64,000 bases of DNA from the NCBI GenBank assembly GCA_964503265.1, contig CAZCYO010000003.1, positions 23,740-87,739 of the forward strand, in the 5' to 3' direction. The notes below the pieces were generated by a model. The model made no database searches, was not told the origin of the DNA, and worked only from the letters and a program-made list of their open reading frames with translations. The position numbers and the translations under genes were made by a program. Shown here piece by piece: positions 9,727 through 48,725 of this stretch. Source of the DNA: an uncultured Gammaproteobacteria bacterium (GTDB taxonomy: Bacteria; Patescibacteriota; Microgenomatia; Levybacterales; UBA12049). The number at the start of each line of letters is the position of its first letter. The first letter of the stretch is position 1.

Positions 9727-9785
9727 TCTACTATATTACTAGGAAAATGATTGTGGTGAGAAGGGAGACATACTTCGTCATAAAA

Positions 9786-9813
9786 AAGCCGCCGGGGTTA
9801 GCCGGCGGCGGGG
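9786..9813 (-). terminator. GC-rich rho-independent terminator for the minus-strand GC-rich cassette
   Basis: Plus strand AAAAAAGCCGCCGG-GGTTAG-CCGGCGGC. On the minus strand an 8-bp GC stem is followed by TTTTTT. Confidence 0.7.
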
Positions 9814-9845
9814 TAGACACATGTGAGGCTGTGTCTCGTGCCTTT

Positions 9846-10169
9846 TTACGGTTGTGAAGGTGGTGGTTGGACCCATGAGACTCGTACGATTTCGTCGAGT
9901 GGGAACTCGCTCGTGTACGAGACGAAGGGAGACAACCGACCTTCTAGAGACGAGATGACGAGTAATCCTGTTTCTGCTTCAATGACTTTTCCGACGTGGA
10001 TCACGTCGTCTTCGAGATTGAAGTAGAGAGCGATCGCTCCTGGAGCTGGTGTTTCCAGTTCTTCAAGTTCGCCACGTAAGAATAACCCCATGACGTGGTT
10101 ATAGTAGTATGTGGATCCGAGAGCGTAGGAAGCAGCGTCTTTATCTGCTGATGCAGATCCGTCAGTCAT
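9846..10169 (-). CDS. hypothetical protein (GC-rich cassette A, gene 3)
   Basis: 107-aa ORF. Local GC is clearly higher than the ~40% background. Confidence 0.4.
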   Translation of the reverse strand: MTDGSASADKDAASYALGSTYYYNHVMGLFLRGELEELETPAPGAIALYFNLEDDVIHVGKVIEAETGLLVISSLEGRLSPFVSYTSEFPLDEIVRVSWVQPPPSQP

Positions 10170-10294
10170 CTTGAACCTCCTGGTGTTATGAGCGCTTCGG
10201 GAACGGGATATCGCGAAGATCAGCGACCTCGCCCTTTAGGGCAGACTGCGTGATGCGGCGAACCACACTGTAGTGGTAGCCCTTCATCTGCTCT

Positions 10295-10549
10295 TCAACG
10301 ACTCCCACGCATTGTCAGGCGATACTGCCTGGAGGGCGCAGGGTTTGAAGACGTGGGGTAGTCATTGAATGGGAGTTCTTGTTGCCATGACTGCAGGTAG
10401 CCTTTCCGAACCAAACTCTCAAGCTCACTAGTCGCAAAGCGGCCGCGAATCTTCCAGTTAATGGTTCCTTCGGTGAAAGTGCCGCTATTGAAAGCAGCGT
10501 CTTGACATGCTCGGAGGACTTCTTGTTCGCCTGGTGTAAGATCATCCAT
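10295..10549 (-). CDS. hypothetical small protein with LuxR/sigma-70-region-4-like N-terminal helix-turn-helix (cassette A, gene 2)
   Basis: 84 aa. LTPGEQEVLRACQDAA resembles the LTxRExEVL HTH start of LuxR/FixJ and sigma region 4. GC-rich. Confidence 0.35.
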   Translation of the reverse strand: MDDLTPGEQEVLRACQDAAFNSGTFTEGTINWKIRGRFATSELESLVRKGYLQSWQQELPFNDYPTSSNPAPSRQYRLTMRGSR

Positions 10550-10565
10550 CGACGCCTCCTTCGTA

Positions 10566-10910
10566 CTATTGTTCGAGCAGCTTCACGGTGGAGTCTGCCC
10601 GAGCCATGATTTCTGCGTGGAAGGCTTTCGCCTCCTGCGCCGCATCGTGTTCGAGAAGAGCATCCAGCCAGAGGGGGACTGTAGCGTAGAGAATCTCACT
10701 CACTGAGAAGGGCATACGAAGTGTGGTTACATGATCGTCAATTGATTGCATCATGTGCAAGACGAAGCCGCCCACAATTCGTCCCTGTCCGGCGAGCTCT
10801 GCGAAGCGTGGGTAGAGATCATCTACCAGTTTCGTAGCAGAGATGACGCTGGTTAAGCGCCTGATCATCTCCTCCCGATCCGGAAGGATTACACGAATGT
10901 CACTTGGCAT
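10566..10910 (-). CDS. hypothetical protein (cassette A, gene 1)
   Basis: I chose the start at MPSDIRV because a GAAGGAGA Shine-Dalgarno lies 7 nt upstream. GC-rich. Confidence 0.4.
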   Translation of the reverse strand: MPSDIRVILPDREEMIRRLTSVISATKLVDDLYPRFAELAGQGRIVGGFVLHMMQSIDDHVTTLRMPFSVSEILYATVPLWLDALLEHDAAQEAKAFHAEIMARADSTVKLLEQ

Positions 10911-10957
10911 AGGGTATTTCTCCTTCTCTGATTCAGGCTTATGCGTATCCAAATGGA

Positions 10958-11046
10958 TAGCATCTTAGGTAAGAATGAATTCCTGCCCAAAATGCTATCC
11001 ACAAAGGATTTAATTATTTCCGCAAACTGTAAAAGTGCAAAAAAAA
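10958..11046 (-). promoter_or_regulatory. upstream control module of cassette A: 10-bp inverted repeat TGGATAGCAT...ATGCTATCCA plus conserved TTTGCGGAAAT and TTTTGCAC-TTTACA motifs
   Basis: Same architecture and near-identical motifs as the region upstream of cassette B (13533-13625). Confidence 0.5.
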
Positions 11047-11154
11047 GATCTATAGTACAACAAATACGCATATGTATTGAAGTACTCTAGTTATAGCGGG
11101 ATTATAGCATTATGAAAGACGCACGGTCAAACTATAGGGCTAAAGATTGCATGT

Positions 11155-11442: not shown

Positions 11443-11540
11443 GACTACGTTAGGGGCACCCTTCGCTACTATTTTCAAGCCATTTTTTTAGGAGTGTGGC
11501 CTGCCACTCCGTAGCTCATCCCGTTAGGGTATGAGCGAAG

Positions 11541-11970
11541 GGTGGAGATGTCCGGGAGCGATCCGGAGTCCGAAATATATTTTTAAAAACATCTACAAGC
11601 GTAGTCACAATTTATAGTGTCGTCTGAAACGTGTTCGAGTGACGGAATTTTTCAGACCTAGATCTCTTAATACCACGAAAGTCGAAATCAGTCTCTCTCG
11701 CTGTTTTCCTAACTGTTTTTAGGTCGTTACTTCCACGTTAGGGAGGAAGTAGGACTGTTCAAAGAGCTCGGGTCTTAAGCAGCAAGTGCGAAAGATTGAG
11801 GTGCGAATGCACCGTCAAAAGCGGATTGAACTCCGTCAGCTGCCTTGAGGGCGAATTGACGGACGCTGCGCATTGAGTCAGCATTTATTTTTTGATAATG
11901 TTTTACGACAACTTATCAATGTCGGCTTGCAGTTTTTAAAGAACGTAAATCGTCGAATCAAATCATCCCC
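11541..11970 (-). ncRNA. ssrA: tmRNA (SsrA), ~430 nt
   Basis: The 5' end, GGGGATGATTTGATTCGACGATTTACG, is near-identical to the canonical tmRNA 5' end GGGGCUGAUUCUGGAUUCGACGGGAUUUGCG. The 3' end reads GGAC-TCCGG-ATCGCTC-CCGGA-CATCTCC-A-CC, and the acceptor GGGGATG/CATCTCC includes the G3:U70 alanine identity pair. An internal reading frame ends ...GCA CTT GCT GCT TAA (…FALAA*), the typical tag terminus. The gene lies immediately downstream of smpB. Confidence 0.8.
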
Positions 11971-12146: not shown

Positions 12147-12590
12147 TTAATATTTTCCCTCAGTATATGCATCTTCTATCTCGCGTGCGATATCTCTATT
12201 TTTTATGGCTTCTTTCTTTTCAAAGGCTTTTTTCGATTTCGCGATACCGAGTTCTGCTTTAATGAGGAGACGTGTAGTATACACCGATATAGGCACGATT
12301 GTCAAGTTTGACCCGTCCATTTTAGCCTTGAGAGAGAGAATTTGTTTCTTATGAAGTAGCAGTTTTCGAGTCCGTTTCGGGTCGTAATTTTCCTGTCTGG
12401 AATTAACATACGGAAAGATACTCGCATTCATTAAATACGCTTCATTTCCACGAATTCTCGCAAAGCTTCCCGTCAAATCTGCATGACCATTACGGATAGA
12501 TTTTACCTCAGCCCCTGTGAGCATAATCCCAGCCTCAAAGGTTTCAAGGATTTGATAGTCGTAGGTTGCCTTTTTATTCACAATTTTCAT
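12147..12590 (-). CDS. smpB: SsrA-binding protein SmpB
   Basis: KKATYDYQILETFEAGIMLTGAEVKSIRNG...LLLHKKQI matches the SmpB signature. Confidence 0.9.
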   Translation of the reverse strand: MKIVNKKATYDYQILETFEAGIMLTGAEVKSIRNGHADLTGSFARIRGNEAYLMNASIFPYVNSRQENYDPKRTRKLLLHKKQILSLKAKMDGSNLTIVPISVYTTRLLIKAELGIAKSKKAFEKKEAIKNRDIAREIEDAYTEGKY

Positions 12591-12684
12591 GAGAGTATGA
12601 TACCTGAAAAAAGGCTAAGAGCAAAGAGGACAGCTAATGGCATAAGGCTCGCTTCTCTTTATGGCTTATGGGTATACATGAGAA

Positions 12685-12720
12685 GACCCCGCTCCGGCGA
12701 ATGCCGAGGCGGGGTCTAGG
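12685..12720 (-). terminator. GC-rich hairpin at the 3' end of cassette B (weak terminator)
   Basis: GACCCCGCTCCGG-CGAATG-CCGAGGCGGGGTC. There is no clean U-run, so the call is weak. Confidence 0.4.
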
Positions 12721-12751
12721 GTGCGCGTTACTTGCGGAAAGTATTTAGCGA

Positions 12752-12910
12752 CTTAGGAAGAAACAAACGAGCCCTGCGAGCTCGAATGGGATGGATAACA
12801 CTACGAATGTTGATCCTCCAACGAGGAGGAAAAGAAACGAGAAGAGAATGCCTGCACAGACGCACATTGCGCCGGCAGCGGTCATGCTAGATTTCCAGGC
12901 CTTCATCGAT
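12752..12910 (-). CDS. possible small membrane protein (53 aa), cassette B
   Basis: GC-rich short ORF MKAWKSSMTAAGAMCVCAGILFSFLF... This is my own translation of the minus strand. It is below the 60-aa cutoff of the ORF track. Confidence 0.25.
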
Positions 12911-12981
12911 GATCTCCTTGCCGCTTGAAAGCGGTGTTATCTATGATCTGTCGAGGATCGTCAGATGTACTCCTTCTCCCG

Positions 12982-13494
12982 CTATGCGGGCCAGTTAATG
13001 AAGTCATCGGTCCAGAGAGGGATTTTGTGTGTGAAGACCCTCCAGAAGTCCTCTTTGGTAGAATTCTCCATTTCCCTTTCCCTAGGCGTTCGAAGATCGA
13101 TCCGCCTGATCAACATAGCGTTGCTACCCCAATTGATGAACTCGCCCTGCTTTGCGATATCGTCCAGCGCGTTTAGCGCATTATGACGGGTGATCTCAAA
13201 GAAGGTTCGGCCCTCGGTTGTGCCTGAGGATGTAGCCCAAGCAATCATGGTAGCAGGGTTGTGTAGTCGCAACATACCGTAGATCGAGATGTTGTTTACA
13301 GCTTCGCACTCCTGTGCAGTGATATATGATGTTGCCACGAGCAGAGATTTCCGCTCACGGTGGGCCGCGATCACGCTGCTGGGAAACGAAATGTATCGTG
13401 CTTCTTGGCGCATGTAGCGCTGATAGGTGAGGATATCGAATCCTCGATTCACCAGGTCTGCGATGAACTCATTCCAAGGAGTTGTCGACATCTT
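12982..13494 (-). CDS. hypothetical protein (cassette B main gene)
   Basis: I chose the start at MSTTPWNEF because a GGAAGGAG Shine-Dalgarno lies upstream. GC-rich. No recognisable motif. Confidence 0.4.
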   Translation of the reverse strand, partial: KMSTTPWNEFIADLVNRGFDILTYQRYMRQEARYISFPSSVIAAHRERKSLLVATSYITAQECEAVNNISIYGMLRLHNPATMIAWATSSGTTEGRTFFEITRHNALNALDDIAKQGEFINWGSNAMLIRRIDLRTPREREMENSTKEDFWRVFTHKIPLWTDDFINWPA

Positions 13495-13532
13495 TGTGCT
13501 CCTTCCGTGATATAGGGGTTTAATAGACGACT

Positions 13533-13625
13533 TTCTAGCTTGAGTGATTATCAAGCCACAAAGTCGTCTATTAAACAATTAATTTCCGCAAATCCCGATT
13601 ACATCGGGAAAAATTGTAAACGTGC
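13533..13625 (-). promoter_or_regulatory. upstream control module of cassette B: 16-bp perfect inverted repeat TTTAATAGACGACTTT...AAAGTCGTCTATTAAA plus TTTGCGGAAAT and TTTTGCAC-G-TTTACA motifs
   Basis: Perfect 16-bp inverted-repeat arms separated by ~27 nt (which contains a smaller inverted repeat). The flanking motifs are shared with cassette A. Confidence 0.5.
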
Positions 13626-13739
13626 AAAATACAAATGTGGCTTGGGGTAGGCAGTAAATGAGCCTATCCAGGCTGCAAATGTAGAAGGGAATTGTAGCAA
13701 AAAAGAAGAGAAAAGTCAAATGCTATAGGACTATTTAAA

Positions 13740-13935
13740 TGATGGTTTTTTTACCAGATGATCTGGTGCATCTGGTGGCTTCTGGGTGTTTTGAGGCTAA
13801 ACTGGGCTTTTTCACCAGTTCATCTGGGCATCTGGATTGATCTGGTGATTTAGCCTCGGGATCTGGTGGAGTTGTGGTCATAAAAAGGGTACCAGATGGG
13901 GTTTCTGGGTGTGATTTGGTGACTGGCTATGCATG
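13740..13935. repeat. cluster of short CATCTGGTG / CACCAGATG iteron-like repeats in a ~450-bp non-coding stretch
   Basis: accagatgatctggtgcatctggtgg...caccagttcatctgggcatctggattgatctggtgatt...gggatctggtggag...accagatggggtttctgggtgtgatttggtgactgg. At least 8 copies in both orientations, including the palindrome CACCAGAT-GATCTGGTG. Confidence 0.6.
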
Positions 13936-14052
13936 TATGCGAGGATTCTTGGGAGGCTTGTCTGCTGAATCTTTGCGAAGAGGTGGAGTGGTAAAGGAGT
14001 AATCGTATAGATTCCCGATCAGGTCGGGAATGACAGTAAGTAAAGCATGAAA

Positions 14053-15966
14053 CTAGAGGGCGATTTGATAGATTTTTTTATTGATGAGGAGGTAGATTTT
14101 TTTGTCTTTCTCAGAGACGATGAAGTCTGAGGCGGATTTGATTTGGTCGGCGGTGTAGGAGGAAATATATGCGCCGGTTTTATCGAGTTTTACAACTCTG
14201 CTATTTCCATTATCGAGGACATACAGATTTTCTGTGTCAGTTGAGGTAAAGAGTTTTTTGGGATTTGAGAGGTTCGATGGGAGACCTGAGAGCGTAAATG
14301 TTTCAGATTCGCCTTTTGAGAATTTGCGAATGGTTCCGTCACTGTCGAGTAAGTACACTGAACTGTCGATACTCATGGAGATTGTGCTTTTAAGGGACGG
14401 GACAGTGTCTTTAAAATAGGTGCTTTTGCCGTAGCCGTCACTGCCAGCGACGAATTTAAGGATATTTACTCCTTTATCTAAGACATAGATGTTACTCAGA
14501 TATACAGATATCGCTTGCGGAGAAGTCCAATCAGAATCATTCGTGACGAGTATTTTCGCTTTATCATTTCCTTTATCGATTTGGCTAATTGTTTTATTCG
14601 TTATCGTATAGACATACGATGTATCTTCACTAACAGCAAGGGCATTTTCAGATAGTTCTTTTTGGAGAGCTGGTGCACTATCACTGCCTGCTTCTGTAAT
14701 CTCAACTTTCTTGGTTGCTTCAGTAGGTGCGATTCCTTGTGAATCAATTTTTTCAGCTAATTCAGAATATTTCTTTTCATCATCAGTGCCAGATTTTACA
14801 TATTGTTTGGCTTTATCAAGTGTTTCTTTGGCTTTCTTAAAGTCATCCATGGCGAGTGATTTATTGAGACTTACTAGGCCTTCTCCCTCAGCATATATTT
14901 TAGATGCTTCATCATACAGTTCCACAAAAGCAGAATGCGCTTTTGTGTCGCCTTGGTTTTGTTTGGTAGTGACGATCGTGAAGATGAGAATTGCTGCAAT
15001 GCCAATCGCAATAGTTAAGAAAAAGAGATTTTTTTTGGGGAAGGAGAAAGAAAAAGAGGGAAGAGCGAAGCGACTTTTTTTAATGACTGCCTCCGCATCA
15101 TCATCACGCTCAATAATGACGGGTTCTTGGATTCGATCTGCAAGTGTTTCTCCTTCTTCTTCCTCGACTGGAAGTGGTGTGCTCTTAAGGGGTTCTGATA
15201 CTGGAAGTACTTCTTTCTCTTCCTCTAGTGCGTCATCAGAGGCCACCTCAGGAGAGTCCTGGTTAAGTGATGGGTGAATCTCGTGCGTTTGTTTTTCTGG
15301 AAGTTGTTTTTTTTCTTTTGGTAGTTCTTCTGTCTCATCCTCAGGCTCTGCAGGTTTTGGTGCCACACTTTCTGAGCTGGCGAAGGTGATAATCGTAGCA
15401 GCGGGTGTACCGTCTTCACTTTTGTGAAGCGTAGGAGTAAGAAGTTCTGCCATATCACTTGGAAGTTGGAGCGTGAAGCTTTCAGTTAAGAGAGTTTTTG
15501 GCACAGATGTGATAAACGATGCTGTGGCAAGAAGAATAATATCACCACTTTGAAGATATCCTGAAACAGTTGCCAGCTCTGGCGAGTCTTTTCCTTCTTT
15601 GAACAGTGTTGCGGTTGTTCCACCACGAGTTAGAAGTGCTTGACCACCACCAAAGGCATAGAGATAAATAATGGAATCTTTGAGAAAAGCTATACATCCG
15701 GATAATGTGACAGTTTCTGGAACTGATTCGAGACTTTTTTTAATGGCTTGTTCAATCGTACTGAGTGTTTTTTCCTCAAGGGTAAAGAATTCTGACTGAA
15801 GGACGTTGGTTATTTGTTTTCCTTGTGCGCTTAAGGTTTCTTCAGATTCCTCAGTTCTTTTTAACGAAAATGCAGCAAAGAGATTCCCAGCATTATATGA
15901 AAGCGACCATGTAGTCGGTGTTGGAGTTGCGGCAAGCTTGGCAAACGTGATGTGTGTCGTGGGCAT
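14053..15966 (-). CDS. single-pass membrane protein with cytoplasmic N-terminal domain, acidic linker, TM helix and extracellular beta-propeller-like repeats; unknown function
   Basis: 637 aa. TM segment LFFLTIAIGIAAILIFTIVTT. C-terminal repeated YVLD/YLLDSDG/YVLDNGNSRVVKLD motifs suggest propeller blades. Confidence 0.4.
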   Translation of the reverse strand: MPTTHITFAKLAATPTPTTWSLSYNAGNLFAAFSLKRTEESEETLSAQGKQITNVLQSEFFTLEEKTLSTIEQAIKKSLESVPETVTLSGCIAFLKDSIIYLYAFGGGQALLTRGGTTATLFKEGKDSPELATVSGYLQSGDIILLATASFITSVPKTLLTESFTLQLPSDMAELLTPTLHKSEDGTPAATIITFASSESVAPKPAEPEDETEELPKEKKQLPEKQTHEIHPSLNQDSPEVASDDALEEEKEVLPVSEPLKSTPLPVEEEEGETLADRIQEPVIIERDDDAEAVIKKSRFALPSFSFSFPKKNLFFLTIAIGIAAILIFTIVTTKQNQGDTKAHSAFVELYDEASKIYAEGEGLVSLNKSLAMDDFKKAKETLDKAKQYVKSGTDDEKKYSELAEKIDSQGIAPTEATKKVEITEAGSDSAPALQKELSENALAVSEDTSYVYTITNKTISQIDKGNDKAKILVTNDSDWTSPQAISVYLSNIYVLDKGVNILKFVAGSDGYGKSTYFKDTVPSLKSTISMSIDSSVYLLDSDGTIRKFSKGESETFTLSGLPSNLSNPKKLFTSTDTENLYVLDNGNSRVVKLDKTGAYISSYTADQIKSASDFIVSEKDKKIYLLINKKIYQIAL

Positions 15967-15969
15967 TAA

Positions 15970-16206
15970 CTATAGTATAGCAAGAGCAAGGAGAAAAAGT
16001 GAAATACTTATTAGTAAATGAAAGATAGTCAAAAATTGAATCAAAGAAGAACCAAATGAATCTCCTACATAAATAATTCGGTTAAATGCTCGAGCTTGTA
16101 CAGAGATGATAATACTAAAAATAACGTATAAACCAAGCAGAATAAGCAGGCAAAATTTTAAAATGATAAGTGGAGAAATTGATAATAGTGTTGTTAAATC
16201 AAGCAT
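15970..16206 (-). CDS. small hydrophobic membrane protein
   Basis: 78 aa, two predicted TM helices. Overlaps the upstream gene's end by 8 nt, suggesting coupling. Confidence 0.35.
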   Translation of the reverse strand: MLDLTTLLSISPLIILKFCLLILLGLYVIFSIIISVQARAFNRIIYVGDSFGSSLIQFLTIFHLLISISLFLLALAIL

Positions 16207-16822
16207 TTGTTCTCCTTCCGGCTTTCGCGTCGAGAATAATATCAGTTAATAGTGCTGGTTGAGGAACTAAGAAAAATTCGAACACTTCTTTCTGACCTTC
16301 TGTCTGTGCCCGAATATTTCCGAAGTTATATAAACTTTGGAAAAACCCGTTTTGAGAGTATTTGACATCAACGATATCACGAAGATACGCAGACGCGACG
16401 TTTTGGCTAAGTACGTTTGGAGCTTCTACTTCAATAATGCGAAGATTGGTTACAATACCGATATTATAAAACCACGAGAAGAAATTTAAGAACGCATAGC
16501 CGAATACAATCTGATAATAAAAAAGGAGAAGCACAAGCACATAGAAGCTTGGAAAAGGGAAAAGAATCGTAAACTGTTGTGAGAGTGCTGTTATAAATGG
16601 CGGAATAAGCAGAAGGAGTGCGGAGATAATGACCCAGGTCAAATTAGTTGAAAAATGACGGCGAAATAAAACAAGAATTACCTCATCTGTTTCTTGATTT
16701 TCAATATGAACATTAAGAGGATTATGGATAAATGCTGAAAACAATCCCATTCCCGAATGAGAATGTGGCTTCATTGGAGGAGATGAAACAGACGAGGTCG
16801 GTGGTATAAATTCTTCAGGCAT
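16199..16822 (-). CDS. membrane protein with bacterial PH (bPH_2/YdbS-like) domain
   Basis: Two TM helices followed by ...IGIVTNLRIIEVE...YLRDIVDVKYSQNGFFQSLYNFGNIRAQTEG, typical of YdbS/YdbT-type bPH domains. Confidence 0.5.
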   Translation of the reverse strand: MPEEFIPPTSSVSSPPMKPHSHSGMGLFSAFIHNPLNVHIENQETDEVILVLFRRHFSTNLTWVIISALLLLIPPFITALSQQFTILFPFPSFYVLVLLLFYYQIVFGYAFLNFFSWFYNIGIVTNLRIIEVEAPNVLSQNVASAYLRDIVDVKYSQNGFFQSLYNFGNIRAQTEGQKEVFEFFLVPQPALLTDIILDAKAGRRTNA

Positions 16823-29608: not shown

Positions 29609-30055
29609 ATGCACTGCCCATATTGTGGAAATAGAGAATCTGAAGTAGTTGAGACACGTGATAACGTTGATCTTAACACGATTAGAAGAAGAAGAGCATG
29701 TTTGCAGTGTATTAAACGGTTTACAACGTACGAGCGGGTAGAAAATGTTTACTTGCTAGTGATAAAAAAAGACGGACGACGCGAGCAGTTTAATAGAGAA
29801 AAATTAAAAACTGGACTCTTTAGAGCTTGTGAGAAGACTCGTGTGTCGCACGATATCATTGAAAAAATTGTCAGTGATATTGAACGCGAACTTAGATGTG
29901 CAGAGTCTATTGAAGTGAAAAGTGATGAAATCGGTGAGCGAGTCGCAAGTAAATTAAAACTTGTCGATAAAGTCGCCTATATTCGCTTCTCAAGTGTCTT
30001 TAAACACTTTGTTGCAGTTGAAGATTTTGAAAAAAAAGTAAAGGAATTACAATAA
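29609..30055 (+). CDS. nrdR: transcriptional repressor NrdR
   Basis: MHCPYCG...ETRDN...RRRRAC..C N-terminal zinc ribbon plus ATP-cone. Confidence 0.9.
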   Translation: MHCPYCGNRESEVVETRDNVDLNTIRRRRACLQCIKRFTTYERVENVYLLVIKKDGRREQFNREKLKTGLFRACEKTRVSHDIIEKIVSDIERELRCAESIEVKSDEIGERVASKLKLVDKVAYIRFSSVFKHFVAVEDFEKKVKELQ

Positions 30056-30056
30056 T

Positions 30057-32525
30057 ATGGCACAACAATTAGACGGACTGAGAAAAAAAGTATTTTTAGA
30101 TCGATATGCGCTTAAAGGCGAAGATGGTGGCTTACTTGAAAGTACTCCTGAAGAGATGTGGAGACGCGTCGCGAAAGGAATTGCTGTCACAGAGAAAAAA
30201 GCCGATCGCAAGAAATGGGAAAAAGAATTCTACCGTGTCATGGAAGATTTCAAATTTGTTCCAGCAGGTCGTATCCTCTCTGGTGCGGGAACCGGATACC
30301 AGGTCACCTACTTTAATTGTTTCGTTATCCCATCTCCTCAAGATTCACGTCACGGAATTTTAGAAGCACTTGGTCAACTCGTTGAGATTCAGGCTCGCTC
30401 AGGTGGCGTTGGACTTAATCTTTCATCCCTTCGACCTAAAGGTGCGCGCGTTAAGAAAGTAAATGGTACGTCATCTGGGCCTGTGAACTGGGCGACGCTT
30501 TTCTCAGTTGCTACGCATGATATCGTTCAACAAGGTGGATCACGTCGTGGCGCAACCATGCTTATGCTCTGGGATTGGCATCCAGATATTGAAGAGTTTA
30601 TTACCGTTAAACAGGATCTATCAAAAATTAATGGTGCTAATCTCTCTGTTTGTGTATCTGATGGCTTTATGGAAGCTGTTAAAAATGATCGTGATTGGGA
30701 ACTTGTGTATCCAGATATTACTGATCCACGATACGACGATGAATGGAGAGGAGATCTGCCAAAGTGGAAAGAAATGGGTGGGCAAGTTATAGTCTATAAA
30801 ACTGTTAAAGCTCGATATCTTTGGGATTTGATTTGTGAAGCTGCATGGAGATCTGCAGAACCTGGCCTTCATTTCATGGAGCGATCAAACAAAAGAAGTA
30901 ACACTTGGTATTTTGAACGTCTCGTTGCGACAAATCCATGCGGCGAACAGCCACTTGGGCCATGGGCTGTGTGTAATCTTGGTGCCATGAATTTAAGTGC
31001 GTATGTTAAAGGCGGTGACCTTGCAAGTGAAAAACCAGGAGTGTTTGATTATGAAGAATTTGCAAAAGACACACGAACTGCGCTAAGACTTCTCGATAAT
31101 GTCATTGATCAAACATATTACTTTTTTAAAGAAAATGAAAAATGTGCGAAAGATATTCGACGAACTGGCCTTGGGGTTATGGGCGTAGGTGATGCTTTAA
31201 TAAAAATGAATATTAAATACGGATCTGAAGAATCTCTTCCCGTGCTTGATAAGATTTTTAAAACACTTCGTGATAATGCATACGAAGCATCGACAGAAAT
31301 TGCCGTTGAAAAAGGCGCATTCCCGATGTTTGATAAAGAAAAATACATGCAGGGATATCATATTCAGAATCTCTCAGCTGAAACACGAAAGCATATTGAA
31401 GAGCGTGGTATTCGAAATGCAGTATTGTTAACAATTGCTCCGACAGGGACGACATCACTCGTCTCAGGTGTATCAAGTGGTATTGAGCCAGTCTACGAAT
31501 TCTCCTTCCTTCGTCGCTGGAGAGGTGGAGAAGAGATTGTGTATCATCCATTATTTGAAGAGTGGAAAAAAGCACATCCTGACACAGAAGAACGACCAGA
31601 GTACTTTGTTGGCGCAAATGATTTAACTCCACTTGAGCATGTTAGTGTCCAGGCCGTAGCGCAGCAATACATTGATTCTTCTATCTCAAAAACGGTAAAT
31701 GCTCCTAACGCTCATGCGATTGATGATGTTAAAACACTCTATATGATGGCATATGATATGGGTCTTAAAGGGGTTACGTATATGAGAGATGGTTCACGTG
31801 TGGGAGTACTCGAGCGTGTTGAAGAAAAGAAAGAAGTAAAAGTAGAGGAATCAAAACCAATTATTCCAGTGACGCCTCGCGTTTCACGTCCGATGATGCT
31901 TGAGGGAACGACATATAAATCTGAAAGCCCAAGTGGAAAAATGTATGTAACGATAAATCATGATGAGAACAACCAACCATTTGAAGTCTTTATTAATAAT
32001 GGAAAATCAGGGTCAGACGTTATGGCGATGGCTGATGCGCTTGGCCGTATGATCTCATTTGTGCTTCGTATTCATAGTACTGTCCCACAGAGGGAGCGAA
32101 TTCGAGAAATTGTGTCAGAACTCACAGGTCTTGGTGGCGCGCGAAGTATAGGATTTGGTGAAAACCGTGTTCGGTCACTTCCTGATGCTGTTGCAAAAGT
32201 ACTTTCTCGTCATTTTGACTTTAGAGTAAATGGGAAAGTAGAAGATCGAGTTATTCTTCCAATCACAGCAGACGCTGTAGCTGCAGAAAGTGCTGCTCCG
32301 GTCGTTGAATCTACTACACACATAAATGGTAATGCAAATGGACATAGTAGTACTGCTGTAAATACTCCTGGACAAATGGCAATTTTGCATACAGATGTAC
32401 CAGAAAAGTCAGCTTCCTATGCTTCTACAAGTCTTTTTGATATCTGCCCCGAATGCGGCTCTGCTACGCTTGCGTATGAAGAAGGTTGTCGAAAATGCTA
32501 TAGCTGTGGACACTCAGAGTGCTAG
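30057..32525 (+). CDS. nrdJ: class II (adenosylcobalamin-dependent) ribonucleotide reductase with C-terminal zinc ribbon
   Basis: 822 aa. NPCGEQPL active-site motif. C-terminal CPECGS...CRKCYSCGHSEC. Confidence 0.85.
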   Translation: MAQQLDGLRKKVFLDRYALKGEDGGLLESTPEEMWRRVAKGIAVTEKKADRKKWEKEFYRVMEDFKFVPAGRILSGAGTGYQVTYFNCFVIPSPQDSRHGILEALGQLVEIQARSGGVGLNLSSLRPKGARVKKVNGTSSGPVNWATLFSVATHDIVQQGGSRRGATMLMLWDWHPDIEEFITVKQDLSKINGANLSVCVSDGFMEAVKNDRDWELVYPDITDPRYDDEWRGDLPKWKEMGGQVIVYKTVKARYLWDLICEAAWRSAEPGLHFMERSNKRSNTWYFERLVATNPCGEQPLGPWAVCNLGAMNLSAYVKGGDLASEKPGVFDYEEFAKDTRTALRLLDNVIDQTYYFFKENEKCAKDIRRTGLGVMGVGDALIKMNIKYGSEESLPVLDKIFKTLRDNAYEASTEIAVEKGAFPMFDKEKYMQGYHIQNLSAETRKHIEERGIRNAVLLTIAPTGTTSLVSGVSSGIEPVYEFSFLRRWRGGEEIVYHPLFEEWKKAHPDTEERPEYFVGANDLTPLEHVSVQAVAQQYIDSSISKTVNAPNAHAIDDVKTLYMMAYDMGLKGVTYMRDGSRVGVLERVEEKKEVKVEESKPIIPVTPRVSRPMMLEGTTYKSESPSGKMYVTINHDENNQPFEVFINNGKSGSDVMAMADALGRMISFVLRIHSTVPQRERIREIVSELTGLGGARSIGFGENRVRSLPDAVAKVLSRHFDFRVNGKVEDRVILPITADAVAAESAAPVVESTTHINGNANGHSSTAVNTPGQMAILHTDVPEKSASYASTSLFDICPECGSATLAYEEGCRKCYSCGHSEC

Positions 32526-32624: not shown

Positions 32625-32800
32625 GTGTTGGAAAAGTATAGGAAATCACGATGAAATTTCGTGACTGTGCCGCAACTGTGAAAGTCAGAAAACTATACTT
32701 AAGTCGTTTCATTCCCGAGCAGGAGTATTCAAGTATAGTAATCTTGTAATCCTTCTTAGGAATTGTTTTTTCTAAAGAAGGATTTTTTGTAAGAATTCTC
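32625..32800 (+). promoter_or_regulatory. cobalamin riboswitch-like leader (compact variant) with intrinsic terminator, upstream of pduO-type gene
   Basis: GGAAATCACGATGAAATTTCGTGACTGTGCCGCAACTGTGAAAGTCAGAAAAC contains the CCGCaACUGU core and an AGUCAG B12-box-like element. Followed by the terminator TCCTTCTTAG...CTAAAGAAGGATTTTTT (32757-32797). Confidence 0.5.
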
Positions 32801-32840: not shown

Positions 32841-33410
32841 ATGCCAATTTATACAAAAACAGGAGATCGTGGCCAAACCTCACTTATGGGTGGAGTTCGC
32901 ACGTCAAAATCAAGCTTACGTGTCGAGACATACGGTACTGTCGATGAACTGAATAGTATTGTTGGCGTGGTTATTGCACATTTACCCGCTAAAAACACAC
33001 CATTTGAGGAAGCCCTTGAAGCGATTCAGCATGATTTACTTGAAATCGGTGCAAGCCTGGCAAATCCACAATCAGCTCCATTAACATATTTATTTGATCG
33101 AGTAACAGAGTTTGAAAAAATGATTGATGAATTTACGACAAATCTTCCTGAACTAACTCATTTTATTTTGCCAGGTGGAGGCGTGACAGGTGCATCGCTT
33201 CATCACGCACGTACGATTTGTCGCCGACTTGAACGAGTGCTTGTACGACTTCAAGACAAAGAGCCTATTGATGCAACGATTGTGATGTATGTTAATAGGT
33301 TATCTGACCTCTTTTTCACTATGGCGCGATTTACGAATCATCTGACAGGAGAAAAAGAAACAGTATGGATCTCACGAAAACAATCTATTACTAGTAAAAA
33401 AAGTAAATAA
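32841..33410 (+). CDS. PduO-type ATP:cob(I)alamin adenosyltransferase
   Basis: MPIYTKTGDRGQTSLMGG...RVETYGTVDELNS matches the PduO/MMAB N-terminal signature. Confidence 0.85.
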   Translation: MPIYTKTGDRGQTSLMGGVRTSKSSLRVETYGTVDELNSIVGVVIAHLPAKNTPFEEALEAIQHDLLEIGASLANPQSAPLTYLFDRVTEFEKMIDEFTTNLPELTHFILPGGGVTGASLHHARTICRRLERVLVRLQDKEPIDATIVMYVNRLSDLFFTMARFTNHLTGEKETVWISRKQSITSKKSK

Positions 33411-33414
33411 CCTG

Positions 33415-33550
33415 GTGAATCTGGTGTAATTCCAGAACTGTGCCGCAACTGTGAAGTCCCGATCTCTATCGGGAATAAGTCAGATCCCGATGTGAATCTT
33501 CCGAGCAGAAGTAGATTTTTCTACACTCCTTGGAAGCAAGGAGTTTTTTT
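33415..33550 (+). promoter_or_regulatory. cobalamin riboswitch (core GGUG.AA.UCC...GCCGCAACUGU...AGUCAG) with terminator/SD-sequestering hairpin
   Basis: CTGGTGAATCTGGTGTAATTCCAGAACTGTGCCGCAACTGTGAAGTCCCGATCTCTATCGGGAATAAGTCAGATCCCG. Expression platform CTCCTTG-GAAG-CAAGGAG + TTTTTTT ends 1 nt before the ATG, and the AAGGAG Shine-Dalgarno lies inside the hairpin. Confidence 0.6.
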
Positions 33551-34961: not shown

Positions 34962-35480
34962 ATGGATAATACTGCTCAAAACCAAGCTCAAACAGTACCA
35001 GTTGCGTCTCAGCCCTCCCAACCGGTGACGCCTGTTGCTCAGCCACAAGCAGAATCAATTACTCAGCCAGTAGCGCTTGATCAACCCCAGACACAGGTTC
35101 AAGCGACTCCTATAGCTCCTGTTAGTCTTCCGCATCGTGAAGCAGGACCTGGACTTGGACGAATGAATGAACTTATGATGCCGAGTGAGGTTGCGCCTGT
35201 ACTTTCAGCTGAAGTAAAAGCAGCAGGAGTTGAGGTGTCTGCAGACCGTGAGCAACCAGTTGTTCCAGCAGACGTGGCTCAGGCTGGTGTTCAGCCTGCT
35301 AAAGCTGCAGTCCCAATGCACACTGTAACAGGATCAAACGTACAATATATTACGAATGCACCATTTGGTCCTGAAGAAGCAATAAAATTCGAAAAATCGA
35401 CACGAGCTTCTGATAGTATACGGTGGCTCGCAACTTTTTTATTGAGACAAGTAAAAAAAGTAGCGATTTTTGGAAAATAA
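34962..35480 (+). CDS. Pro/Gln/Ala-rich low-complexity protein, unknown function
   Basis: 172 aa. Overlaps the start of the downstream ATPase gene by 11 nt. Confidence 0.35.
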   Translation: MDNTAQNQAQTVPVASQPSQPVTPVAQPQAESITQPVALDQPQTQVQATPIAPVSLPHREAGPGLGRMNELMMPSEVAPVLSAEVKAAGVEVSADREQPVVPADVAQAGVQPAKAAVPMHTVTGSNVQYITNAPFGPEEAIKFEKSTRASDSIRWLATFLLRQVKKVAIFGK

Positions 35481-37857
35481 TATGGAAAGTGTCATTAGCT
35501 CATCTCAAACATTTATGTTGGCTCTTTTTATAGGAGTTATTGTGATTGGGATACTGCTGTTACTAGGGTATGGGTTAGGATATTTCTTGCTGTTATGGTT
35601 TCGTAATAGAAAACGCGAGTCGGACTCTCTTAATTCCACACTGTTACAAGTGGCAGTCTCACGCGATAATGAAGTTAAAATCGATGCCGCAGAGCAACTA
35701 TTTACGAGCCTTGCATCGATTCGGAAAACAAATAAAATGGCATATTTTGGTGCTCAGCCACATATTTCATTTGAAATTGTCGGTACTCCTGGAGACATAC
35801 GATTTTATGTCAATGTTCCAAATAAATTACGTGACTTTGTGGAAAAGCAGATTAATGGAGCCTACCCTGATGCCGATATCATGCCAGTCTCAGATCCAGC
35901 TGCAAAACAGCGAGCAAATAATATTTTAGGGAGTGAATATAATATTTTTTCTGAGAAGGGGAAAGTGGCGTTTGCCTCGCTTTATCTAAAAGGCGCACCG
36001 TATATGCCAATTAAGGTGTTTAAAGATTTTCCTGTTGATCCATTAGCATCTATTACGTCTATTTTGGCGAAAATGAGCGAGGGGGAGGGAGCTGCAATTC
36101 AAATCTTAATACGCCCTGCAGATCCTAAATGGAGAAGTATAGGTAAAAGTTATATTTCAAAAACAAAAAAAGGTGAAGCTAATCCTGAAACAGCTAAATA
36201 CTCAACAGATGCAAAAGAAATGGAAGGGGTGGAAAATAAAACCAATAAAGCTGGGTTTGATTGTACCGTTCGACTTGTTGTCTCAAGTAGTTCTCACGAG
36301 GCAGCAGAAGCACATTTATCAAATATGGTGCAAGCGTACAGTCAATATAACGGAGCAAATTCATTTAAGAAAAATAAACACCGCTTTTTTAAAGGAAGTT
36401 TCATCACTGACTTTATTTATCGTTATTTTCCACTTTTTGGACATACGTCGCTTCTTAATAGTGAAGAGTTGGCGACACTGTTCCATTTTCCAAATAAAAG
36501 TATTACCACTCCTGGTATTTACTGGGTAACATCAAAACGTTCTCCTGCACCTGCGAATATTCCAACTGATGGTTTATATTTAGGAAAAAGTACCTACCGG
36601 GGTATTTCACGTCCAATTCATATTTCAGATGACGATAGACGTCGACACATGTACATCATCGGAAAGACTGGAACTGGTAAGTCAGAATTTCTGAAACAAA
36701 TGATTATGCAGGATATTAAAAATGGAAAAGGACTAGCTGTGATTGATCCTCATGGAGATTTAGTCGAGGATGTTCTTCAGATGATGCCACCAGAACGTGC
36801 CGAAGACGTTATTCTTTTTGATCCAGCAGACACGTCTCGCCCGATGAGTTTAAACATGCTTGAGGCAGAGACAGAGGAACAGAAGCACTATGTTGTATCA
36901 TCTCTGATTGGACTGATGTATAAATTATTTGATCCGAATAAAACTGGTATCATCGGTCCACGATTTGAGCATGCGATTCGAAATGCGATGTTAACAGTTA
37001 TGTACGCAAAAGGCAGTACTCTTATTGAACTTGTCCGCGCCCTCACAGACCAAGCCTTTGTCCAAGAAATTTTGCCACTTGTCGATGATCCAATTATCAG
37101 ACGTTACTGGACTGATCAAATCGCACAAACGTCAGATTTTCATAAATCAGAAGTACTTGATTACATTGTGTCCAAATTTGGCCGTTTTGTTACGAATAAA
37201 ATGATTCGAAATATCATCGGGCAGTCAGATAGTTCATTTAACTTTAGAAAAGTAATGGATGAAGGAAAAATCATTCTCGTTAACTTATCAAAAGGAAAAA
37301 TTGGAGAAGAGAACTCAAGTTTCTTAGGGTTAGTGCTTGTGCCAAAGATTTTAACTGCAGCGATGAGTCGACAGAATATCCCACAGTCAGAACGCCGGGA
37401 TTTTTATCTCTATGTGGATGAGTTTCAGAATTTTGCGACACCTGATTTCGCACAGATTCTATCTGAGGCTCGAAAATATCGCTTGAATCTTATCGTTGCG
37501 AATCAGTTTATTGGACAAATGGATGAAGAAGTGAAAAATGCTATTTTTGGAAATGTAGGAACAATCGCGTCATTTCGTGTCGGCGTTACTGATGCAAATT
37601 ATATTCAGCACGAATTCCAACCGACGTTTAGTGAAGCAGATTTAATTAATGTTGATCGTTTTAATTGCTACATGAAGACACTCGTGAACGGTGAACCAGC
37701 ACCACCATTCTCACTTGATACGACCAAAAACATTGAAGAAGAGAAGAAATTGATGAATCCACGGGTCGCAGAACTCGTTAAAGAGCTTTCAAAATTAAAA
37801 TATGGCCGTGATGTCCATCTCGTTGAAGCAGAGATTACTCAACGTGCGAAGCTCTAA
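35470..37857 (+). CDS. membrane-anchored FtsK/HerA-superfamily ATPase, VirB4/VirD4 (type IV secretion / DNA-uptake)-like
   Basis: N-terminal TM hairpin. Walker A YIIGKTGTGKSEF at about aa 397, Walker B LYVDEFQNFAT, and a conserved C-terminal block ANQFIGQMD. Confidence 0.55.
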   Translation: MENNMESVISSSQTFMLALFIGVIVIGILLLLGYGLGYFLLLWFRNRKRESDSLNSTLLQVAVSRDNEVKIDAAEQLFTSLASIRKTNKMAYFGAQPHISFEIVGTPGDIRFYVNVPNKLRDFVEKQINGAYPDADIMPVSDPAAKQRANNILGSEYNIFSEKGKVAFASLYLKGAPYMPIKVFKDFPVDPLASITSILAKMSEGEGAAIQILIRPADPKWRSIGKSYISKTKKGEANPETAKYSTDAKEMEGVENKTNKAGFDCTVRLVVSSSSHEAAEAHLSNMVQAYSQYNGANSFKKNKHRFFKGSFITDFIYRYFPLFGHTSLLNSEELATLFHFPNKSITTPGIYWVTSKRSPAPANIPTDGLYLGKSTYRGISRPIHISDDDRRRHMYIIGKTGTGKSEFLKQMIMQDIKNGKGLAVIDPHGDLVEDVLQMMPPERAEDVILFDPADTSRPMSLNMLEAETEEQKHYVVSSLIGLMYKLFDPNKTGIIGPRFEHAIRNAMLTVMYAKGSTLIELVRALTDQAFVQEILPLVDDPIIRRYWTDQIAQTSDFHKSEVLDYIVSKFGRFVTNKMIRNIIGQSDSSFNFRKVMDEGKIILVNLSKGKIGEENSSFLGLVLVPKILTAAMSRQNIPQSERRDFYLYVDEFQNFATPDFAQILSEARKYRLNLIVANQFIGQMDEEVKNAIFGNVGTIASFRVGVTDANYIQHEFQPTFSEADLINVDRFNCYMKTLVNGEPAPPFSLDTTKNIEEEKKLMNPRVAELVKELSKLKYGRDVHLVEAEITQRAKL

Positions 37858-37901: not shown

Positions 37902-37975
37902 GGGTGTGTAGCTCAGTGGTAGAGCGCGACTCTTATAAAGTCGATGTCCTTGGTCCGATCCCAAGCACACCCACC
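37902..37975 (+). tRNA. tRNA-Ile (anticodon UAU by hand folding)
   Basis: GGGTGTG-TA-GCTC-AGTGGTA-GAGC-G-CGACT-CTTATAA-AGTCG-ATGTC-CTTGG-TCCGATC-CCAAG-CACACCC-A-CC. All stems are Watson-Crick. Positions 34-36 read TAT. Confidence 0.65.
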
Positions 37976-40067: not shown

Positions 40068-40970
40068 TTACAGTTCTGACAGGTGACTTGTGTCTTTTGC
40101 TCGGTCTTTTACAAATTCCAGATAGCGTTCAGTTGTTGAAATTCTTTTATGTCCTAAAATCTTTGAAAGAAGGACGAGTGAAACTCCATGTTTTAAATGA
40201 TGTGCGACGAATGTATGTCGAAGATCGTTTACTTTTGCATTTTCGATTTCAGCAAGTCTAAAATATCGTTCAATTGCGGTTCTAATATTTCGAACGAGGA
40301 ACGGTTTGCCTGATTTGGTAACGAAAATATGATTATCTGTTACTTGTGGACGACCTTTGAGATAGCGGCTAAGCGCTTCTTTAGCTGAACGATTAAGTGG
40401 AACGACTCGTTCTTCATGTTTTTCCATTGGGCGAATTCGAAGCGTTTCACCTTCGATATCTGTTAAACGAAGTTCGGCGAGTTCTCCAATTCTAATTCCT
40501 GTTTGAAGAAGTAGTTCGATAATAGCAAACATTCTTGGATCATTTCGTGCAGCGTCTCTAAGTGCTCGATATTCTGTCGGTTTAAGGATTCGTGGAGGAG
40601 CTAGTTCGTATTTTGGATGAGAAACAAGAAGCGATGGATCGTCAGTAATAATTTCATTTACTTTTAGATAACGATAAAAAGTACGTGTTGAGTTCAATTT
40701 ACGAGAAACTGACTTAGGAGTATATCCTTTATCTGCCATTGTTGCTAAAAAGGCTTGAAGATCTTCCGTTTTAACATCATGAACATTATGCTTTTCAAGC
40801 TCAGAAAGAAAAGAACTTAACTGCTCTATATCTTTTCCATATGCTAGAATAGTAGCACTGGAGTGCTTCTTGCTTTTTAAAAAGTCAATAAATTTTGCGT
40901 GCGCGTCTCGAATTTTGATCGGTTCTGACATACTATATCCCATAATATCAATAAATTCATGATTCGTCAA
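40068..40970 (-). CDS. tyrosine recombinase XerC/XerD family
   Basis: N-terminal SAM-like core-binding domain. C-terminal R...HTFVAHHL...GH..ISTTERYL with catalytic Tyr. Confidence 0.8.
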   Translation of the reverse strand: MTNHEFIDIMGYSMSEPIKIRDAHAKFIDFLKSKKHSSATILAYGKDIEQLSSFLSELEKHNVHDVKTEDLQAFLATMADKGYTPKSVSRKLNSTRTFYRYLKVNEIITDDPSLLVSHPKYELAPPRILKPTEYRALRDAARNDPRMFAIIELLLQTGIRIGELAELRLTDIEGETLRIRPMEKHEERVVPLNRSAKEALSRYLKGRPQVTDNHIFVTKSGKPFLVRNIRTAIERYFRLAEIENAKVNDLRHTFVAHHLKHGVSLVLLSKILGHKRISTTERYLEFVKDRAKDTSHLSEL

Positions 40971-48460: not shown

Positions 48461-48725
48461 TCGCAAGTTATTAACGTGCAAGACACAAAAACTGTGAATG
48501 AAAAAGTTTTCAGAAACGCATATGTTTTTGAAGCTATTTCAATGGAAGTATGATAGCAGATCAATCGAACAAGGTCAAACTATAAGACTTGATAGAGGAG
48601 GGCAGGGGAGAATGGATAGTGTATGACTGTCTCAGATGTATCTATGTAAAGAAAAAAAATAAAATAAAGTATGTAATCTACATATGTATTGTCTATAGAA
48701 AGAAACGTAACTAGGGGAGAGTGGG

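Follow-up and report, generated by a model that had tools for sequence, protein, structure and literature searches.

Between the gene for a 637-residue membrane protein (p637) and a small gene cassette (cassette B), a 64,000-nucleotide stretch of contig CAZCYO010000003.1 from an uncultured bacterium of the Levybacterales (hereafter the window, whose coordinates are used throughout) carries a cluster of short repeats in both orientations, raising the question as to what kind of element such an array represents. A first reading of the DNA (the original prediction) suggested either a replication origin of the plasmid or phage type, or a set of sites for multi-site regulator binding. We find that the array is a real and highly non-random cluster of helically phased boxes lying upstream of a conserved promoter, and that the origin reading is not supported. 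We tentatively favor the interpretation, to which we assign a probability of about 45%, that it is a lineage-specific docking platform, operator or upstream site for a cooperatively binding, oligomerising protein.

Composition of the array

Six exact copies of the octamer ATCTGGTG are present in the window, where 1.6 are expected, and none of 100 shuffles gave as many; four of the six are within 13761-13868. If up to one mismatch (≤1) is allowed, the count within 13752-13921 is nine, with both strands represented. Defined by their CTGG (or inverted CCAG) cores, 13 boxes lie between 13754 and 13926, ten on the plus strand and three inverted, with the consensus (C/G)ATCTGGTG. In a position weight matrix constructed from these 13 boxes the CTGG accounts for most of the information, with a smaller share from the AT before it and little from the TG after it, and of the 154 matches of this matrix in the window 13 are inside 13744-13935. 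The original prediction described a many-copy cluster of an 8-9-mer in both orientations, and this is confirmed; nor is the motif scattered elsewhere at similar density, since core sequences reach 13 per 200 nt in the array and at most 7 (about half) in the rest of the window. The corresponding values for TCTGG/CCAGA are 10 and 4, and across 1.2 Mb of related and unrelated loci the array has the highest CTGG-box count per 150 nt (11), the runner-up being an unrelated Bacillota locus with 10. The non-coding gap in which the array resides is likewise present, and its predicted length of 450 bp proves to be only approximate: it is 558 bp (13495-14052) if cassette B begins at the ATG at 13494, where a Shine-Dalgarno sequence is present, and 474 bp if it begins at the TTG at 13578.

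The region escapes Tandem Repeats Finder, owing to the excessive degeneracy of the copies and to the inverted ones that interrupt them. We reject an explanation as a tandem repeat or minisatellite, given this lack of a call and the inverted copies, which speak against slippage. A coding remnant is also rejected: only one open reading frame (ORF; 48 aa, minus strand, 13735-13881) crosses the array, and it lacks a ribosome-binding site and is not preserved in L004, a sister species described below. We note that three of the array boxes read GATCTGG and hence contain GATC, which is present at its expected frequency in the window as a whole, and that CTAG is strongly avoided across the whole window (85 seen vs 231 expected, a ratio of 0.37).

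Tandem units and helical phasing

The array is composed of three tandem copies (U1, U2 and U3; Table 1) of a 60-77-bp unit, each with one inverted and three to four direct boxes. An A/T tract, which recurs at the equivalent point of every unit, is followed by an inverted box abutting a direct box, then by two more direct boxes at 8-10 bp and a further box about 20 bp on. U1 contains a 23-nt repeat that is 83% identical to U2 and matches a profile hidden Markov model (HMM) of the unit with E = 9e-7; the corresponding value for the degenerate U3 is 5e-4. The original prediction also pointed to a palindrome, which is present as TACCAGAT-G-ATCTGGTG at 13752-13768, and there is a second, imperfect one at 13812-13827.

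The repeats are 8-9 bp long with an invariant core of 4 bp, and successive direct boxes are separated by 9, 10, 20, 22, 8, 10, 21, 42 and 18 bp. These positions fit a period of 10.0-10.25 bp (Rayleigh R = 0.83; p = 0.010 vs random non-overlapping placements), and because the spacings are 8-10 bp or multiples of about 10 bp, the boxes are positioned on one face of the helix.

Position relative to promoter P1

All of the genes neighboring the array are on the minus strand. Between the array and cassette B there is a near-consensus sigma-70 promoter, P1, which drives cassette B and has 10 of 12 matches and an extended -10, and from which transcription is predicted to start near 13684; relative to this putative start the array spans about -70 to -240. 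P1 is conserved in the loci L002, L004, L116 and L117, and the window includes an rpoD gene. The CCTATAG sequence directly 5′ of the TTGAC of its -35 element is also found at 48586 and 11138 in the window and in L047, L050, L086, L087, L116 and L117. Because this promoter recurs at other genes, P1 represents a general promoter form of these organisms that is separate from the array. We also note that a CCTATAG (or CTTATAG) box is situated 5′ of the -35 at strong sigma-70-like promoters at 13723-13729, 11132-11138 and 48580-48586. In these bacteria, which belong to the candidate phyla radiation (CPR), the box may serve as an upstream promoter element specific to the lineage.

Conservation in related genomes

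The close relatives include L001 and L003, which belong to the same species as the window, L002, with a p637 that is 69% identical, and the L004 type (74% identical), for which there are seven loci that are identical across the region. L004 contains a single array unit followed by P1 and a decayed cassette. In L002, P1 and the leader that follows it begin about 25 nt past the stop codon, with different cassette genes and no array. The contig of L003, a 96%-identical strain, stops 20 nt short of the array (L003 3370-3382 corresponds to window ~13958), which may reflect either an assembly break from the repeats or strain variation in unit number.

The unit retained in L004 corresponds to U2. Window 13857-13811 (minus strand) and L004 1801-1848 are identical at 35 of 48 positions (73%), compared with 43% in the spacer between the stop codon and the unit, which is essentially random, 58% in P1 and 57% in the leader. 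The L004 unit retains GAGGCTAAA, which is the minus-strand reading of the arm at 13849-13857, as well as three direct CCAG cores and the inverted CTGG, all with unchanged spacing; the bases beside the cores differ, with CCAGAT in the window and CCAGGT, CCAGCT or CCAGGA in L004. In a MAFFT alignment of U1, U2, U3 and the L004 unit, all 11 of the 11 invariant columns are inside box cores and the spacers vary. Judging from these alignments, selection is visible on the box cores and on their spacing. The original prediction had conceded that the region could simply be an AT-rich promoter whose homologs do not conserve the spacing of the repeats, and this is not what we observe in L004, the one homologue with the element.

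Searches with the unit profile HMM reveal no further copy in 1.3 Mb of Levybacteria loci. More distant relatives that carry inserts have no comparable repeat arrays, and about 50 more distant Levybacteria are without an array. Scanning for the exact pattern in metagenome contigs with the P1 promoter pattern gave no match, and a protein-guided metagenome scan recovered homologues that are only 31-52% identical in their best segment, most of them 31-42%.

A candidate platform for a cooperatively binding protein

The degenerate boxes in mixed orientation, their invariant core and helical spacing, the strong promoter and the conservation of the cores lead us to favor a cooperative protein-binding array. 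A small oligomerising DNA-binding protein would coat the boxes cooperatively, with one dimer per box and along one helix face; ribbon-helix-helix proteins, AbrB/MraZ-like proteins and response-regulator-type factors behave in this way. The resulting complex, at about -70 to -240, could act on P1 as an upstream operator, silencer or activator for cassette B, and it could also insulate P1 from read-through from p637. The proposal of multi-site regulator binding made in the original prediction fits this anatomy, with phased boxes upstream of a conserved strong promoter and cores conserved across species.

There are nonetheless several observations that weigh against this interpretation. We have no candidate for the binding protein: the nearby ORFs lack DNA-binding domains in Pfam, NCBIfam, PHROGs and PADLOC, and no binder is found among the flanking ORFs or the approximately 50 ORFs of the window that were scanned. 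The unit is present nowhere else in the 1.3 Mb of Levybacteria loci, and there is therefore no regulon backing a dedicated factor. The conservation comes from two lineages only, L002 has P1 without any array, and the distance from the unit to P1 differs between the window and L004. The p-value for the phasing is modest, and the boxes had been picked by their core.

As an element type the array is not unprecedented, and it constitutes a new, lineage-restricted case of a known one, the phased multi-box binding array. Gene regulation is almost unstudied in the CPR (Patescibacteria), where few transcription factors are recognisable, and the array offers a definite bait with which to look for a DNA-binding protein of an uncultured lineage. 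For the present the wider importance of the array is limited, as it is a single element in two lineages for which no partner has been found.

Comparison with known systems

The closest documented parallel is the ParG system, and we propose by analogy that the array works likewise. Upstream of parFG in plasmid TP228 there are 20 degenerate ACTC tetramer boxes, direct and inverted, each bound by one dimer of the ribbon-helix-helix protein ParG, and this box set is operator and centromere at once (PMC3130281). The two arrangements share many degenerate boxes with a 4-bp core (12 + 8 in the parH centromere and OF operator of TP228, 13 here), the presence of both direct and inverted boxes, regular short spacing and a location directly upstream of a promoter (PMC3130281). 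They differ in core (CTGG here vs ACTC) and in period (9-10 bp here vs 8), in that centre-to-centre distances here are 8-10 bp (mostly 9-10) with mixed spacers such as TGCAT and TGGCTT vs 4-bp AT-rich ones, and in that no parF/parG-like genes are adjacent, the context is a CPR chromosome, and binding is a proposal. None of the nearby ORFs encodes a ribbon-helix-helix, ParA or ParB domain. Because the core, period and spacer composition differ and there are no parFG-like genes, we reject membership of the ParG family itself.

Among arrays bound by other oligomerising regulators are the GTGGG repeats of MraZ, PhoB/PhoP boxes, omega-protein heptads and Fis sites at rrn P1. These resemble the array in that direct repeats about one helical turn apart lie upstream of, or overlap, a promoter and are bound cooperatively (as we propose for the array), but the array motif fits none of their consensus sequences and no such regulator was found; a literature search on MraZ repeats also returned nothing. 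Two of the boxes read TCTGGTGG, matching seven of the eight bases of the E. coli Chi sequence GCTGGTGG, and most boxes share one orientation and lie near a recombination-prone region; Chi sites, however, are dispersed and single, whereas the array is a 180-bp cluster with inverted copies. Chi, uptake-signal and repetitive extragenic palindromic (REP) sequences were rejected, since CTGGTG, TCTGGTG and CTGGTGG are at or below Markov expectation on both strands outside the array, with no strand skew (64 kb of the source genome). An integron attI/attC platform was rejected as well, there being no integrase near the array and only an Xer-like one at 40068-40970; in addition, the cassette hairpins here are 5′ of the ORFs with ends GTT...AAC, in contrast to the AAC...GTT of attC.

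Cassettes at the p637/smpB-ssrA hotspot

Homologues of p637 are found in Candidatus Levybacteria/Levyibacteriota and other Microgenomates (CPR). Of about 50 such genomes, about 35 have smpB located 60-190 nt downstream of the p637 homologue, and the rest carry unrelated small inserts. Because this gap is usually so short, the 1.46 kb between p637 and smpB in the window represents inserted material at a recurrent hotspot. The hotspot inserts seen among L005-L053 include a Phd/RelE-like toxin-antitoxin pair (L044), ORFans of about 190 aa (L007, L023, L045) and a 480-510-aa membrane protein (L005, L011, L025).

Cassette B is horizontally acquired, high-GC DNA placed between p637 and smpB-ssrA. 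Its 170-aa gene lies in a patch of 0.50-0.52 GC in a genome of 0.40, and a second high-GC patch, cassette A (9780-11140), lies beyond the gene for transfer-messenger RNA (tmRNA; ssrA). On both sides smpB-ssrA is flanked by high-GC ORFan cassettes of foreign origin (0.50-0.55 GC, compared with 0.40 for the genome), and no integrase is encoded in the cassettes. They are preceded by a shared modular leader, consisting of a CCTATAG-TTGAC promoter, TTGCACnTTTACA, often TTTGCGGAAAT, and a cassette-specific hairpin with 23-26-nt arms ahead of the ribosome-binding site; the cargo varies among close relatives, and the same leader adjoins tRNA or tmRNA genes in other Microgenomates.

The original prediction proposed looking for co-occurrence of the array with cassette-B-like genes, and we find none. 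Remote homologues of the 170-aa protein have the same arrangement of P1, leader and hairpin, beside a tRNA gene in L116 and beside smpB-tmRNA in L117, in both cases without an array, and in the sister species L004 it is the cassette-B gene that is lacking and the array unit that is present; the presence of the array is therefore not tied to that of the cassette gene. The array does mark a hotspot beside smpB-ssrA where foreign ORFan cassettes swap, and a more speculative suggestion, which we regard as a long shot, is that it is the platform of an undescribed CPR-specific DNA-binding protein that controls these cassettes or helps in their exchange. If so, the array would belong to a small integrase-less system of cassette capture and silencing, in which variable cargo is placed behind a conserved promoter of the CCTATAG type, a leader that is likewise conserved and a hairpin specific to each cassette.

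Absence of replication-origin features

Iterons are well known in plasmid and phage systems such as pPS10, P1 (the replicon, not the promoter), lambda and P4 with its octamer repeats. Origins of this type resemble the array in having repeated short motifs that are helically phased, sometimes inverted and beside an A/T-rich stretch, but the array is accompanied by no cognate initiator gene, DnaA box, skew switch or mobile-element similarity, and its repeat is much shorter than 17-22 bp. A switch in cumulative GC skew, which the original prediction proposed as a check, is not present at 13.8 kb, and the skew climbs steadily across the window. The DnaA box TTATCCACA is absent from 12583-16722 with up to one mismatch (≤1). 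The neighborhood contains no gene for Rep, DnaA, ParA or ParB, and a Pfam scan of roughly 50 ORFs of the window likewise uncovered none of these, nor dnaN. The only replication-related genes found are the housekeeping primase gene dnaG and that of the Xer-like recombinase, both more than 26 kb from the array. The cassette-B protein has no recognisable Rep or DNA-binding fold, and neither it nor the intergenic DNA has a match in 50,697 phage and 72,556 plasmid records. The array pattern is also absent from viral contigs, a looser pattern giving chance matches in GC-rich coding DNA. Promoter P1 is itself the sole A/T-rich stretch beside the array, and it is also conserved where the array is missing. 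The plasmid/phage origin half of the original prediction thus fails on skew, DnaA boxes, gene content and phage and plasmid searches, and the array should not be annotated as a replication origin.

Alternative explanations

A related possibility, that the boxes are the iterons or centromere of a plasmid or phage replicon that integrated or is now defunct, draws on their two orientations, shortness and helical phasing beside an A/T-rich stretch in horizontally acquired high-GC DNA, and octamer iterons are known for the satellite phage P4. It is contradicted by the findings just described, including the lack of rep and par genes, and by boxes of 8-9 bp where 17-22 bp is typical of iterons; we regard it as largely refuted and the least probable of the explanations considered here. 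Unlikely, but to be taken more seriously, is the view that the array is a neutral by-product, in which a short palindromic segment (an old terminator, a REP-like hairpin or a cassette-boundary remnant) was triplicated locally and is now decaying with no dedicated binder. The construction from three tandem units is as expected from this, as are the location in a hotspot of frequent insertion and replacement, the degenerate duplicate of the leader hairpin region that immediately follows the p637 stop codon (27-nt repeat 13593-13619, 14013-14039), the array-less P1 of L002, and the failure to find a binder or a second locus. Such decay does not readily account for cores and spacing that are kept across species while the flanking spacer is randomised (73% vs 43%), for differences between units that spare the cores, or for phasing at 10 bp, and replication slippage does not yield inverted copies.

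The position of the array at the edge of a segment that is wholly different between close relatives, beside smpB-ssrA, raises the further possibility that the boxes bind a recombinase or architectural protein aiding cassette exchange, in the manner of arm-type or accessory sites of att, cer and attI. Homologous cassettes adjoin tRNA (L116) and tmRNA (L117) genes, the boxes are in both orientations, and short inverted TTTGCGGAAAT / TTTCCGCAA motifs bracket the cassettes. However, there is no integrase or recombinase gene in or near the cassettes, the only one being that of the Xer-like tyrosine recombinase 26 kb off; the cassette-bearing L002, L116 and L117 have no array; the conserved flanks (P1/leader and the pre-smpB sequence) suffice for replacement by homologous recombination; and thirteen sites greatly exceed known arm-site sets, making this explanation improbable. 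We consider it yet more doubtful that the element functions in RNA, as part of the 3′ untranslated region of p637, either as a C-rich, G-poor Rho-loading (rut) site or as a terminator or stabiliser on the minus-strand transcript. The region does directly follow the p637 stop codon, the plus strand has a GC skew of 0.42-0.48 over 13700-14150, so that the minus-strand RNA has a strong excess of C over G, and U3, alone among the units, has a weak terminator match (minus-strand hairpin 13908-13892, a 5-bp stem then TACCCTTTTT). The folding z-scores of the array region are -3.0 and -4.7, the latter on the minus strand, but any set of inverted repeats predicts low folding energy, and it is to the inverted repeats that we attribute these values. 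Moreover, the stable hairpins formed by the inverted boxes are at odds with an unstructured rut site, L004 does not retain the 9-bp outer stem, and the main hairpins have no U-tract, U1 and U2 being followed by A-runs on the minus strand. A known RNA family or riboswitch was rejected, with no Rfam match in 13580-14100 even at E ≤ 10; the only Rfam match nearby is a spurious miRNA at the hairpin at 13518-13576.

Genomic context

The window is ordinary chromosome, encoding GAPDH, guanylate kinase, NrdR and ribonucleotide reductase, purine biosynthesis and salvage functions, DnaG, RpoD and the Xer-like recombinase. The features of the array and its surroundings are listed in Table 1.

Table 1. 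Coordinates of the array, its units and the surrounding features (window coordinates unless another locus is named).
Feature	Coordinates	Strand	Details
Whole array	13744..13935	.	13 CTGG/CCAG-core boxes and phased A/T tracts
Unit U1	13744..13804	+	T7 tract; inverted core 13754; direct 13763, 13772, 13782; distal 13802
Unit U2	13805..13872	+	T5 tract; inverted 13815; direct 13824, 13832, 13842; distal 13863
Unit U3, degenerate	13879..13935	+	A5 tract; inverted 13892; direct 13905, TTGG ~13916, 13923
7-1-7 palindrome, near-perfect, ACCAGAT-G-ATCTGGT	13752..13768	.	U1 inverted box and first direct box
9-bp perfect inverted repeat around U2	13793..13857	.	Arms GAGGCTAAA 13793-13801, TTTAGCCTC 13849-13857
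p637, 637-aa membrane protein, NHL/propeller-like C-terminus	14053..15966	-	Upstream of array
Hairpin ATTCCCGA/TCGGGAAT after p637 stop codon	14011-14031
Promoter P1	13691..13729	-	CCTATAG 13729-13723; -35 TTGACT 13719-13714; 17-nt spacer; TGn + TACAAT 13699-13691
Conserved leader elements	13582..13627	-	TTGCACGTTTACA 13627-13615; small hairpin TCCCGATGTAATCGGGA 13609-13593; TTTGCGGAAAT 13592-13582
26-nt-arm hairpin, between leader and cassette-B ribosome-binding site	13518..13576	.	Arms 92% complementary
Cassette-B ORF, 170 aa	12982..13494	-	GC ~0.52; good Shine-Dalgarno; unnamed family, ~20 remote homologues
53-aa hydrophobic ORF with Shine-Dalgarno, putative second gene of cassette B	12745..12906	-
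GC-rich hairpin after 53-aa ORF	12685-12716
smpB	12147..12590	-
tmRNA (ssrA)	11540..11970	-	RF00023, 105.8 bits
High-GC cassettes	Window 9780-11140, 12680-13640; L002 11960-12960, 14100-15160; L116 3550-4280; L117 2430-3140

The tmRNA was unreported by ARAGORN, and it is the Rfam model that places it directly downstream of smpB. Blocks of the conserved leader are also found in cassette A (11016-11040) and in L002. The hairpin with 26-nt arms that follows the leader has its lower stem kept in L002, and its upper stem, although different there, still pairs. The two copies of the 27-nt direct repeat mentioned above (74% identical) bracket the array together with P1, and each holds a TCCCGA...TCGGGA hairpin; a duplication or insertion may have made this spacer and left the repeat behind. 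These hairpins, at 14011-14031 and 13593-13609, resemble a TCCCGATctctATCGGGA hairpin found in another part of the window, where a second, small group of array-type boxes (ACCTGGTGAATCTGGTGTAATTCCAGAAC) occupies 33410-33474, just past the cob(I)alamin adenosyltransferase gene (32841-33410), and is followed by that hairpin. Upstream of the adenosyltransferase gene there is an AdoCbl-II riboswitch (32626-32703), and the B12-related NrdR and ribonucleotide reductase genes (29609-32525) are just upstream of the riboswitch. Further along, a gene for a VirD4/TrwB-like coupling-protein ATPase (35470-37857) is present in the chromosome beside a tRNA-Ile gene (37902-37975), and the Xer-like tyrosine recombinase gene lies 2 kb past this tRNA.
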